DNA from: Patescibacteria group bacterium
GTDB lineage: Bacteria > Patescibacteriota > Patescibacteriia > UBA9934 > GWF2-40-263
Reading direction: 5' to 3'
DNA length: 64,000 bases
Assembly: GCA_038065075.1 (NCBI GenBank)
Contig: JBBTRQ010000019.1
Location: forward strand, 9,456-73,455
In this document: positions 20,644 to 22,692 of the stretch, piece after piece
Numbering within the stretch: the stretch's first letter is position 1
Layout of the letters: each line of letters starts with the position of its first letter
The notes under the pieces: model-generated
Databases searched by the model: none
What the model was told of the DNA's origin: nothing
What the model saw: the letters and a program-made list of their open reading frames with translations, nothing else
Made by a program: the position numbers and the translations under genes

Positions 20644-22692
20644 TTACGCAGTTGCTAGCATAACGATAAACTCCTTCTCCGACAAGGTAGGGACGCCGAG
20701 CTTTTTCGCGTCATCGAACTTCGAGCCCGGACTCTCTCCCACCACCACAAAGTCCGTCTTCTTACTCACCGACCCGGCGACTTTCCCGCCGGCTTTCCGA
20801 ATCGCCTCTTTTGCATCGTCACGACTGAGTGCCTCGAGGGTGCCCGTCACGACGAACGTCTTCCCGGTTGCCTTCGTTTTTGTTCTAGCGTACTGCTGTA
20901 CTAGTACACTGATACCATTGTCCAAAAATCGCTCGACGAGCTTGCGATGGCGATCCTCGTCAAAATACTCGCGCACACTTTTTGCCACCACGTCCCCGAT
21001 CCCCTCCACCTTCATGAGGTCCTCGAGTGTTGCCTCGACCACCTTGTCGAGTGAACCGAAGTGGTTGGAGAGATCGATGACCGTCTGTTCGCCGACGTTA
21101 CGAATCCCAAGCGCAAGGATGAAATTCGAAAGCGAGATCGTCTTACGCGCCTGAATTTGTTCGACGAGCTTGTTCGCCGAGAGTTCAGCAAATCCCTCCA
21201 GTCCCAGCACGTCGCCTGGCTTCAAGAGGAACAAGTCGGCAGGACTCGAGATAATGCCGTTCTCCAGAAGTGTGGCGATAGTCTGTGGCCCAAGTCCATC
21301 GATCTCAAACGCGCGAGCCGCATGCAGAATCGCTTCACGATCTTGGACGAAGCACTTCGGGTTGGTGCAGTAGATGGCGACTTCATCCTCTCGACGCTCA
21401 ACCTTGGAGCCACAGACGGGACACTTCGATGGCGGCTTGGTCTTGTGTGCCCCGCTCGGCCGCAACTTCACGATCACCTCCTTAATCTTCGGGATAATGT
21501 CACCGGCCTTGTAGAGGATCACCGTGTCGCCCTCGCGCACATCGAGCCGCTCGATCTCGTCGAGGTTGTGCAAGCTCGCGTGCACAACGGTTGTGCCTCC
21601 AATCCACGTCGGTTCCACGACCGCGACCGGCGTGAGCGCTCCTGTGCGACCGACCGTCCACTGAATCTCCCTCACCTTCGTTGTCGCTTCCTCCGCCGGG
21701 AACTTCCACGCGACCAACCCCCGTGGGGTCTTTCCAACCACGCCGAGCTTCTCAAAGACGCTGTTCTCATTTACGCGCACCACCATGCCGTCCACCCAGT
21801 AACCGAGCTGGTCGCGTTTCTCCTGCAGCCATAACCAATGCTTACGAATCGCCTCGACAGACTCGAACCGCTTTGATTCAGGCGCTGGACGAAATCCAAT
21901 TTGCTCGAGGATCTCCCACTCTTCCTCCATCGTCGATTGTCCAAAATCCGCATCGAGATCCCACGCAACAAACGCGAGTCCACGCGACGCCGTAATCGAC
22001 GAATCAAGTTGGCGGATCGACCCGGCCGCGGTGTTGCGAGGATTAGCAAACGTTCCCTCTCCCGCCTTTTCCAATTCACGGTTCATCTTCTCAAACGCCT
22101 TTACCGGAAAATAAATCTCCCCCCGCACTTCGACATACTCAGGAACTCCGGTCCCCCTCCCTTTTTCGGCACCCCTCCTTTTCAAGGAGGGGTTGGGGGT
22201 GGTTATGGGCCGCAGTCTCAACGGCACCGACTCGATCGTCTTCACGTTCTGCGTTACGTCTTCTCCAACCTTCCCGTCCCCTCGTGTCGCCGCCGAATTC
22301 AGGAGTCCGTCCTTGTACACGAGGCTCACGGCCAGGCCATCGAGTTTGGGCATACAAAAAAGCTCGTCGACCTTCTTCCCACCAACTTTGTGAAGTCGTT
22401 CGCGCCACGCCTCGAATTCCTCTTGCGTGAACACGTCTTCCATCGAGAGCATCGGCCGTGCGTGCGTCACCTTCTGGAACTTCGACAGGGGCTTGCCACC
22501 CACGCGCTGGGTCGGTGAGTCGGGGGTGATGAGCTCGGGATATTCCTGCTCGAGTTTGTAGAGCTCGTGCTTGAGCGAATCCAGCGCCGCATCAGAAATC
22601 TCAAGCGTGTCCAGCACGTGATACTGGTAACGATAGTCGTCGATGGTCTGACGAAGTTTCTCGATTCGTTCCTTGGCCTGTGCCTTCGTCAT
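20644..22692 (-). CDS. ligA: NAD-dependent DNA ligase LigA
   Basis: Adenylation motif [14 protein letters not shown], Zn finger ([24 protein letters not shown]), HhH and BRCT domains. Contains an in-frame repeat insertion (see 22172-22207). Confidence 0.9.
22172..22207. repeat. Repeat family A copy, inside ligA and in frame (encodes ...[10 protein letters not shown]...)
   Basis: CCCCTCCTTTTCAAGGAGGGGTTGGGGGTGGTTATG. Near-identical copies at 45967-46000 and 62574-62609. Confidence 0.7.

Follow-up and report, generated by a model that had tools for sequence, protein, structure and literature searches.

A repeat of apparent intrastrand triplex-motif kind carried in frame in ligA and uvrA of a Patescibacteria group bacterium, and its association with DUF559 nuclease genes

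INTRODUCTION

How does one short piece of DNA come to be translated inside two unrelated essential enzymes? The question is raised by a 64,000-nucleotide stretch from a Patescibacteria group bacterium (GenBank assembly GCA_038065075.1, contig JBBTRQ010000019.1, positions 9,456 to 73,455), referred to here as the window. In it, the genes for the NAD-dependent DNA ligase (ligA) and for UvrA (uvrA) share an identical 36-mer, CCCCTCCTTTTCAAGGAGGGGTTGGGGGTGGTTATG, which we call family A. An initial annotation, made from the letters of the window, described this 36-mer as a palindromic repeat inserted in frame into both genes, proposed a third copy as the leader of another gene, and likened the whole to the palindromic elements of Rickettsia.

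Here, we report that family A has the layout of a class II intrastrand triplex motif, the kind of repeat known as BoxC, PIT, or TM_ECO (Hoyne and Maher 2000; Holder et al. 2015, PMC4666352), and that modules of this kind lie close to genes of the DUF559 nuclease family in many other genomes. The structural kind of repeat was already known; the stem sequence, the hosts, and the translated copies are new. The explanation that we favour is that family A is a triplex-motif repeat whose window copies are solo modules, two of them carried as passenger loops, with a DUF559 gene plus modules as the proposed parent unit; to this reading as a whole we assign a probability of roughly 75%.

RESULTS

The repeat is a 33-nt module present three times in the window.

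A search of the window placed the 36-mer at 22172-22207 and 62574-62609, in both cases on the plus strand, and 100 dinucleotide-preserving shuffles gave a chance expectation of 0.00 for such a match. The identity of the two copies, which are read in different frames, is exact, as had been annotated. The description as a 36-bp palindrome was correct with regard to the repeat and incorrect with regard to the palindrome, which covers the first 21 nt only (CCCCTCCTT-TTC-AAGGAGGGG); the next 12 nt are a linker and a structured third arm, and the final ATG is flank that lies outside the functional unit. The unit of family A is thus 33 nt long with a 9-3-9-3-9 arrangement of pyrimidine arm, loop, purine arm, linker, and third arm (Table 1). 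The third arm, GGGGTGGTT, is a mirror of the purine arm, AAGGAGGGG: across the family, G corresponds to G and A corresponds to T or A.

The 21-nt palindrome occurred a third time at 45967-45987, followed by CTA-GGGGTGGTT up to position 45999. This copy differed from the other two in the 3-nt linker alone (CTA versus TTG), with 27 of 27 stem bases identical, and all three copies were oriented alike relative to transcription. Copy 3 occupies two thirds of the 49-nt spacer between two co-directional genes, directly downstream of a gene for a VirD4/TraG-like type IV coupling protein. The annotated position of this copy upstream of a gene was confirmed, with the start codon of that gene corrected from 45957 to an ATG at 45956. 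A ribosome-binding role for the GGAGG of the copy, which had also been proposed, appears unlikely and is unproven, because this GGAGG lies 12 nt from the ATG and would be held in the 9-bp hairpin, and the flank has a GGAGG of its own just 1 nt from that ATG. The supposed diverged relative in uvrC (58880-58930) turned out to be a pyrimidine-rich tract that had no hairpin and no match to the element within 3 mismatches.

Arm order and covariation place family A among class II intrastrand triplex motifs.

Class II motifs were recognized by the ITxF definition (Holder et al. 2015), under which all arms lie on one strand, stems measure 6 to 15 nt and loops 1 to 6 nt, and the third arm runs antiparallel to the purine arm; the triplets allowed are G·G-C, T·A-T, and A·A-T, and no more than one mismatch is tolerated. 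All three window copies were perfect 9-3-9-3-9 modules in the class II order of pyrimidine, purine, and reverse-Hoogsteen arm, and the comparison of AAGGAGGGG with GGGGTGGTT gave nine allowed triplets out of nine in each of them. A generic motif scan picked up copies 2 and 3 and skipped copy 1 solely because its stem reaches a tenth A-T pair; when the window was dinucleotide-shuffled 30 times, the scan returned 0 motifs. Folded as DNA with ViennaRNA, which models the hairpin only, the copies gave energies of -9 to -9.6 kcal/mol and z-scores of -3.5 to -4.5.

The mirror relationship held well beyond the window. Among the 157 copies listed in a scan across species (see below), the two bases after GGGGTGG, which were outside the search pattern, showed T in 155 and TT in 119, as predicted by the mirror rule, and the loop and linker were free to vary (40 loop variants and 21 linker variants). 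In deduplicated modules from loci that had been chosen by protein alone, GGAGGGG arms carried the tail GGGG[AT]GG 75 times versus 2, and GGGGAGG arms carried the tail GG[AT]GGGG 26 times versus 1 (75:2 versus 1:26; Fisher p = 4e-21). At least eight stem classes at loci chosen by the DUF559 protein alone followed the mirror rule, including AAGGGGAGG with GGAGGGGTT, AAGGAGAGGG with GGGTGAGGTT or GGGAGAGGTT, GGAGAAGG with GGATGAGG, and several more. Two other readings of the G-rich half were rejected. Pairing of the tail with the 5' arm gives C-T and T-G mismatches, and the mirror reading suits every stem class; a G-quadruplex, possible in principle, leaves the covariation at A/T positions unexplained and was ruled out for TM_ECO by nuclear magnetic resonance (NMR) (PMC4666352). 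Rfam had no family covering the element, whether the window was searched at gathering thresholds or 17 DUF559 loci were searched at E-value thresholds.

On these sequence grounds, we assign family A, a short DNA repeat with dispersed copies, to the class II intrastrand triplex motifs. CCCCTCCTT and AAGGAGGGG would pair as a hairpin, and on single-stranded DNA GGGGTGGTT could fold back antiparallel to the purine arm, giving a predicted purine-motif triple helix of G·G-C and T·A-T triplets. The closest known system is BoxC (PIT, TM_ECO), CCCTCNCCC N3-6 GGGNGAGGG N3 GGGNGAGGG, which forms a stable triplex in vitro as determined by circular dichroism and NMR (PMC4666352). Family A shares with it the one-strand layout (9-nt pyrimidine arm, loop of 3 to 6 nt in TM_ECO, 9-nt purine arm, 3-nt loop, and 9-nt mirror arm) as well as dispersed multicopy occurrence at variable loci and some palindromic pairs. 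However, the two are different sequence families (CCCCTCCTT/AAGGAGGGG/GGGGTGGTT versus CCCTCNCCC/GGGNGAGGG/GGGNGAGGG); family A was found in at least 14 phyla, whereas TM_ECO has been reported in Proteobacteria, and family A has in-frame gene copies, which the account of TM_ECO does not describe (Holder et al., PMC4666352).

The copies in ligA and uvrA are secondary guests in loops.

By its best protein hits, the window belongs to Candidatus Uhrbacteria, a lineage of Patescibacteria. The product of the window ligA matched E. coli LigA (PDB 2OWO) with E = 1e-161. Copy 1 lies in an uninterrupted ligA reading frame, and the insert in the protein, residues 163 to 181, stands just before the conserved EVRGE (188 to 192), where the alignment with E. 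coli LigA showed an 18-residue gap. Most of 120 LigA homologues, including most Uhrbacteria LigA proteins, were about 665 amino acids (aa) long and had a short loop at this site; the insert was confined to the nearest clade (75 to 87% identity), and within the same set a 79%-identical orthologue was without it. The degenerate partial copy beside copy 1 (Table 1) was common to the window ligA and to its 87%-identical orthologue P0001. An assembly artefact was excluded, since the same LigA protein was present on independent NCBI and ENA assemblies and orthologous copies occurred in further metagenome-assembled genomes (MAGs). In the AlphaFold2 model, residues 171 to 180 had a mean predicted local distance difference test score (pLDDT) of 53, with values below 50 at 174 to 176, and the blocks flanking the insert scored 94 and 87.

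Copy 2 likewise lies in an uninterrupted reading frame and is read in a frame other than that of copy 1, encoding 12 residues (UvrA 343 to 354) from the minus strand. Alignment with the Geobacillus protein of solved structure showed a 14-residue gap opposite the insert. Orthologues with 93, 91, 88, and 87% identity had an empty site (WLPTK-ISIVD), while the orthologue at 89% carried the insert in the same frame and the one at 90% carried it at the same site in another frame (TTPSPSLKRRG). Residues 343 to 353 had pLDDT values below 50, compared with means of 90 and 72 for the adjacent 10-residue blocks, so that the LigA and UvrA inserts were both modelled essentially as low-confidence coil.

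The copies in ligA and uvrA are secondary in-frame insertions in loops of essential enzymes, because UvrA orthologues of up to 93% identity are without the insert, one has it in another frame, and the inserts are modelled as coil. This bears out the annotated tolerance of in-frame insertion, and the comparison with sister genes that the initial annotation had proposed gave the same answer, with UvrA orthologues at 87 to 93% and a LigA orthologue at 79% identity lacking the insert. We consider it very likely that the element in these genes is a solo triplex-motif repeat that was inserted secondarily and is carried as a passenger loop. In the orientation found here, with the genes on the minus strand, stop codons (TAA and TGA) block the third frame, and in the opposite orientation all three frames are open. 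The copies may thus persist in ligA and uvrA by virtue of a unit length that is a multiple of three and of five open frames out of six. The in-frame copies would then be what selection has left over, and the peptides they encode would be passenger loops rather than functional parts of the enzymes.

The copies in sister genomes were better conserved than their hosts. The sister uvrA and ligA genes were only 77 to 82% identical to those of the window at the DNA level, and in three of four filled sites 27 of 27 stem bases were kept, with changes limited to the loop and linker; a 72%-identical ligA had two stem substitutions. The window ligA and uvrA copies share the linker CAA and the loop GAA (minus-strand sense), and the uvrA and ligA copies from two related metagenome samples share TAG and AAA, although their origin from one genome is not confirmed. 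If both metagenome contigs belong to one genome, this pattern would point to concerted evolution or re-copying over plain vertical decay.

Several further features of these genes were observed. The LigA orthologues P0002, P0003, and P0005 had more short inserts nested in the element-derived peptide of the alignment, and the family A element may itself be a target for other repeats. UvrA has a second in-frame insert, a 24-residue peptide from a different palindromic repeat family with partners elsewhere in the window (Table 1); its pLDDT was 26 to 34 at residues 147 to 169, and it was absent from most orthologues, with related versions in a few. The window UvrA and Uhrbacteria orthologues (835 to 870 aa) were without about 80 residues corresponding to Geobacillus UvrA 340 to 420, near UvrA position ~320 to 350. 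Just upstream of uvrA, on the opposite strand, the window matched the Rfam DUF3800-IX RNA (59 bits versus a gathering threshold of 36.8).

Family A is dispersed over at least 14 phyla.

Scanning one genome per species with the pattern CCCCTCCTT-NNN-AAGGAGGGG-NNN-GGGGTGG yielded at least 157 exact copies at 120 or more loci in at least 14 phyla as judged by record titles, with isolates and closed chromosomes among them: Pseudomonadota, Bacteroidota, Balneolota, Ignavibacteriota, Chloroflexota, Patescibacteria, Armatimonadota, Abditibacteriota, Nitrospirota, Nitrospinota, Acidobacteriota, Thermodesulfobacteriota, Cyanobacteriota, and Planctomycetota. Approximately 88% of the 157 copies listed lay outside long open reading frames (ORFs). 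Translated copies were not limited to ligA and uvrA: in-frame copies in both orientations were found in genes for EPSP synthase, urocanase, UxuA, and UDP-glucose dehydrogenase of Bacteroidota and Patescibacteria (loci L116, L053, L025, and L021). In Hymenobacter (L020 and L038), among others, copies formed inverted doublets with a spacing of ~60 nt. A scan of viral contigs gave 6 loci, a BLAST search of plasmid and phage collections with a 39-mer gave weak partial hits only, and a full-text literature search for the sequence strings returned unrelated primer tables only. Head-to-tail tandem arrays with a period of 35 to 41 nt were also seen (L014, positions 7128-7322; L083; L112; and L118, a Thiomargarita MAG).

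Modules are concentrated beside DUF559 genes.

When all ORFs of at least 120 aa from the approximately 120 pattern-selected loci were clustered, the sole recurrent small family abutting the element was DUF559 (PF04480), a Vsr-like PD-(D/E)XK nuclease family of about 120 aa. Clusters of response regulators/histidine kinases, ABC ATPases, and RND proteins among the neighbouring ORFs were set aside as generic abundant families. DUF559 directly abutted the element at 7 of the 120 pattern-selected loci listed (8 gene copies), which came from Balneolaceae and Rhodohalobacter, Ignavibacteria, Gammaproteobacteria, Flavobacteriia, Bacteroidales, and Moraniibacteria. At L028 and in both copies at L066, the gene was bracketed by inverted modules, in the order hairpin-linker-GGGGTGGTT, gene, AACCACCCC-linker-hairpin.

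We then took as a test set 80 metagenome loci selected by DUF559 protein patterns alone (36 to 71% identity to the seed). The exact family A hairpin (CCCCTCCTT-NNN-AAGGAGGGG) was present within 150 nt of DUF559 in 34 of the 80 loci, on both sides in 11 of these, and the generic scanner found some triplex motif within 200 nt in 68 of the 80, on both sides in 43. The prevailing orientation was inverted, with the third arms toward the gene. The DUF559 flanks, about 35 kb in total, contained about 163 motifs, compared with 39 in 132 kb elsewhere in the same loci, a density that was higher by ~16-fold. The association of the module and its variants with DUF559 genes is thus tight. The genes themselves were small, multicopy, and frequent on short contigs.

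The profile of the module-bracketed DUF559 proteins matched PDB 3HRL (E = 1e-28), which like YcjD of E. coli is a DUF559 protein, and the homing endonuclease I-Bth0305I (PDB 3R3P; E = 5e-4). I-Bth0305I is an intron-encoded enzyme of the Vsr-like (EDxHD) kind that cuts at a specific target in recA (PMC3239194). In contrast, the DUF559 genes described here are free-standing and bracketed by triplex modules, and their nuclease role is a putative one.

A comparable neighbourhood exists in E. coli K-12, where a perfect BoxC lies ~170 nt downstream of the DUF559 gene ycjD. A decayed hairpin was found at the ycjD stop codon, and a partial duplication of the 3' end of ycjD lies between this hairpin and BoxC. 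The segment containing ycjD and BoxC (L209, positions 5041-5840) was present over at least 80% of its 800 nt in 3375 of 5426 complete E. coli genomes, and the others matched on the fabI side only. In one E. coli genome without the segment (L216), unrelated DNA with TetR and RND genes began ~45 nt past the BoxC position; a search for a clean empty site thus met a different segment in its place, which is no evidence of excision. Our literature search found no report of a link between triplex-motif repeats and DUF559, and the link is apparently unreported; Holder et al. (PMC4666352) found no mobility functions and no common function among the neighbour genes of TM_ECO and did not mention ycjD or DUF559.

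DISCUSSION

Origin of the modules.

We propose that the parent is a DUF559 gene lying between inverted triplex modules, which together would form a minimal selfish unit. The window copies, other solo modules, inverted doublets, and tandem arrays would all derive from this unit. Either the Vsr-like nuclease or the stalling of replication at a folded module could start a break-and-copy event, that is, homing-like gene conversion or template switching, which would seed and homogenize solo copies. DUF559 is a possible mobilizing enzyme, a part of the proposal that we hold to be somewhat less likely than not. In its widest form, which we advance tentatively and would not be surprised to see fail, the proposal is that a very small selfish element, spread across bacteria and with a Vsr-like DUF559 nuclease gene as its sole gene, has BoxC/PIT/TM repeats as its terminal modules and gives rise to further ones as solo derivatives; the nuclease would recognize the fold of hairpin plus third strand and drive copy-and-paste spread, including in-frame colonization of essential genes in streamlined Patescibacteria. 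The inverted doublets of family A resemble miniature inverted-repeat transposable elements in that they look as if they had arisen by deletion from a unit bounded by terminal inverted repeats, whereas the window copies are single 33-nt modules that have neither terminal inverted repeats nor a target-site duplication.

Several points weigh against a DUF559-plus-modules parent. The triplex folding of the window copies is predicted from their letters, and no TM_ECO triplex was seen in double-stranded DNA or by dimethyl sulfate footprinting in vivo (Holder et al. 2015, PMC4666352). A six-frame hmmsearch detected no DUF559 gene in the 64-kb window, and Uhrbacteria DUF559 proteins were absent among the best 120 homologues. 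The seeds for the test set had been found beside the element, the 80 loci are the nearest relatives of these seeds, and a few are near-duplicates. Similarity of the proteins was weakly linked to shared stem class (52.4% versus 49.0% identity); the link had p ~0.001 with a small effect for upstream modules and was not significant for downstream modules. Comparison of filled and empty ligA and uvrA sites showed no target-site duplication or defined insertion site, and no transposition or homing event was observed. Finally, the direction could be the reverse, with DUF559 genes inserting beside existing triplex motifs, or the motifs could regulate the gene.

Alternatives to the DUF559-plus-modules parent.

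The comparison with Rickettsia palindromic elements (RPEs) leads to the first alternative, in which family A would be a palindrome of the RPE type or of the repetitive extragenic palindrome (REP) type, moved in trans by a REP-associated tyrosine transposase (RAYT) or an IS200/IS605-type tyrosine transposase that cuts beside the hairpin. RPEs were reportedly described by Ogata and colleagues in 2000, and RPE-1 is roughly 100 to 150 bp long. To our knowledge, RPEs are restricted to Rickettsia and its relatives, and we know of no description of a mirror third arm in them. Family A behaves like an RPE, being palindromic, tolerated in loops of essential proteins as an in-frame peptide insertion, and variably present among close relatives. 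It is set apart from the RPE descriptions by its 33-nt unit, with no CGTC/GACG in the unit or flanks, so that the RPE hallmark claimed by the initial annotation applies to the behaviour and not to the identity, either as an RPE or as a GTAG/CGTC-tagged REP.

RPEs are mentioned by Di Nocera et al. (2013, PMC3733652), and the short RPE-4 and RPE-6 are CGTC-tagged REPs. The same study documents intragenic GTAG/CGTC REPs, palindromes of 20 to 40 bp, in uvrA, uvrB, DNA ligase, and dnaE genes. Family A is likewise a palindromic repeat within replication and repair genes, and the earlier statement that such insertions are rarely reported outside Rickettsia was overstated. A REP/RAYT origin would also suit a short GC-rich dispersed hairpin that is mostly extragenic in most phyla and at times forms inverted doublets. 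However, the three window copies with their adjoining flanks and the cross-phylum consensus, where the flank is mostly CT or TT, were free of GTAG and CGTC tags, and the model has no role for a conserved third arm with mirror covariation. Moreover, the ORF clustering that singled out DUF559, which covered ORFs of at least 120 aa from about 120 loci, yielded no recurrent transposase family, and no transposase or integrase remnants were reported near TM_ECO (Holder et al., PMC4666352). We therefore regard mobilization by such a transposase as improbable.

Even less probable, in our judgment, is a functional RNA or regulatory hairpin that sequesters or supplies a ribosome-binding site, stabilizes mRNA, or terminates transcription, with the coding copies as by-products. 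The stem CCUCCUU/AAGGAGG corresponds to the universal anti-Shine-Dalgarno and Shine-Dalgarno sequences, and both the compact spacer filled by copy 3 and the common orientation of the three window copies would be expected of such an element. Across genomes, however, copies lie in both orientations relative to neighbouring genes, and the same is true of those in frame (PLLxKEGxGVV and HPQPLLxKEG). RNA does not form purine-motif triplexes, the kind implied by the mirror arm, and PIT had no promoter or terminator activity in E. coli in earlier work (both from PMC4666352); in addition, the mRNA of the window carries the C-rich complement, and Rfam offered no matching family.

That the peptides are ancestral or selected, functional proline-rich loops whose DNA identity is coincidental or convergent is very improbable: similar proline-rich peptides do occur in the same LigA loop in several lineages, but close UvrA orthologues have an empty site, two frames occur at one uvrA site, the 36 nt are translated in one frame in ligA and in another in the unrelated uvrA, most genomes have this DNA between genes, and AlphaFold gives the inserts as low-confidence coil. 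The initial annotation had named beforehand, as the mark of ancestral protein sequence, the same peptide at the same position across unrelated lineages; the orthologues did not show this, and the insertion reading stands.

Implications.

With these results, a repeat of Patescibacteria is assigned to a defined structural class, whose members are shown to be able to reside in proteins as translated loops, here in LigA and UvrA. BoxC/PIT/TM repeats have had no known origin or mobilizing activity since they were described in the 1990s, and the DUF559 link makes this old question testable: it offers a concrete candidate for what generates or maintains the repeats and, at the same time, suggests what a widespread domain of unknown function may do. 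Both ideas can be tested with oligonucleotides and one small protein, for which YcjD and BoxC of E. coli are a ready model. For annotation, such repeats account for many proline- or glycine-rich inserts and spurious small ORFs in MAGs.

Other features of the window.

Table 1. Positions of the family A copies, their host and neighbour genes, and other repeats in the window
Feature	Position	Strand	Remarks
Copy 1, 33-nt core	22172..22204	+	In ligA; minus-strand coding of 12 LigA residues
Copy 1, pyrimidine arm	22172-22180		CCCCTCCTT
Copy 1, loop	22181-22183		
Copy 1, purine arm	22184-22192		AAGGAGGGG
Copy 1, linker	22193-22195		
Copy 1, mirror (reverse-Hoogsteen) arm	22196-22204		GGGGTGGTT
Degenerate partial copy beside copy 1	22150..22171	+	GGTCCCCCTCCCTTTTTCGGCA; encodes AEKGRGT of LigA
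Copy 2, 33-nt core	62574..62606	+	In uvrA; same as copy 1, including loop and linker
Copy 3, 33-nt core	45967..45999	+	Intergenic; arms and loop as in copies 1 and 2, linker CTA; 6 nt past the TAA stop (46008-46006) of the VirD4/TraG-like gene and 10 nt before ATG 45956
ligA	20644..22692	-	NAD-dependent DNA ligase, 682 aa; hosts copy 1
uvrA	61017..63635	-	872 aa; hosts copy 2
VirD4/TraG-like type IV coupling protein gene	46006-48564	-	Directly upstream of copy 3
Gene downstream of copy 3	45339-45956		Start codon ATG at 45956
Second in-frame insert in uvrA	63133-63192		Partners at 26086-26145 and 52519-52558
Rfam DUF3800-IX RNA match	63705-63769	+	Just upstream of uvrA
dnaX	43771-45333		Contains a repeat of the GATCCCTCGAC...CTCGGGATGACACA family
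GATCCCTCGAC...CTCGGGATGACACA family	44122-44299; 18678-18771; 29563-29601; 60915-60963		First position in dnaX
CCCGCCGTCGCTAAAGCTATGGCGGG family	23567-23598; 25174-25199; 52583-52616; 54923-54954		Palindromic
Three paralogous segments of ~1.16 kb	30308-32625; 35342-36605		83-91% mutually identical

Family A was not the only repeat in coding DNA of the window. Another family, GATCCCTCGAC...CTCGGGATGACACA, was found in dnaX and in the N-terminal part of an M23 peptidase gene, and several unrelated repeat families therefore colonize coding regions here. A third palindromic family, CCCGCCGTCGCTAAAGCTATGGCGGG, occurred at four positions, and three paralogous segments were also present (Table 1).

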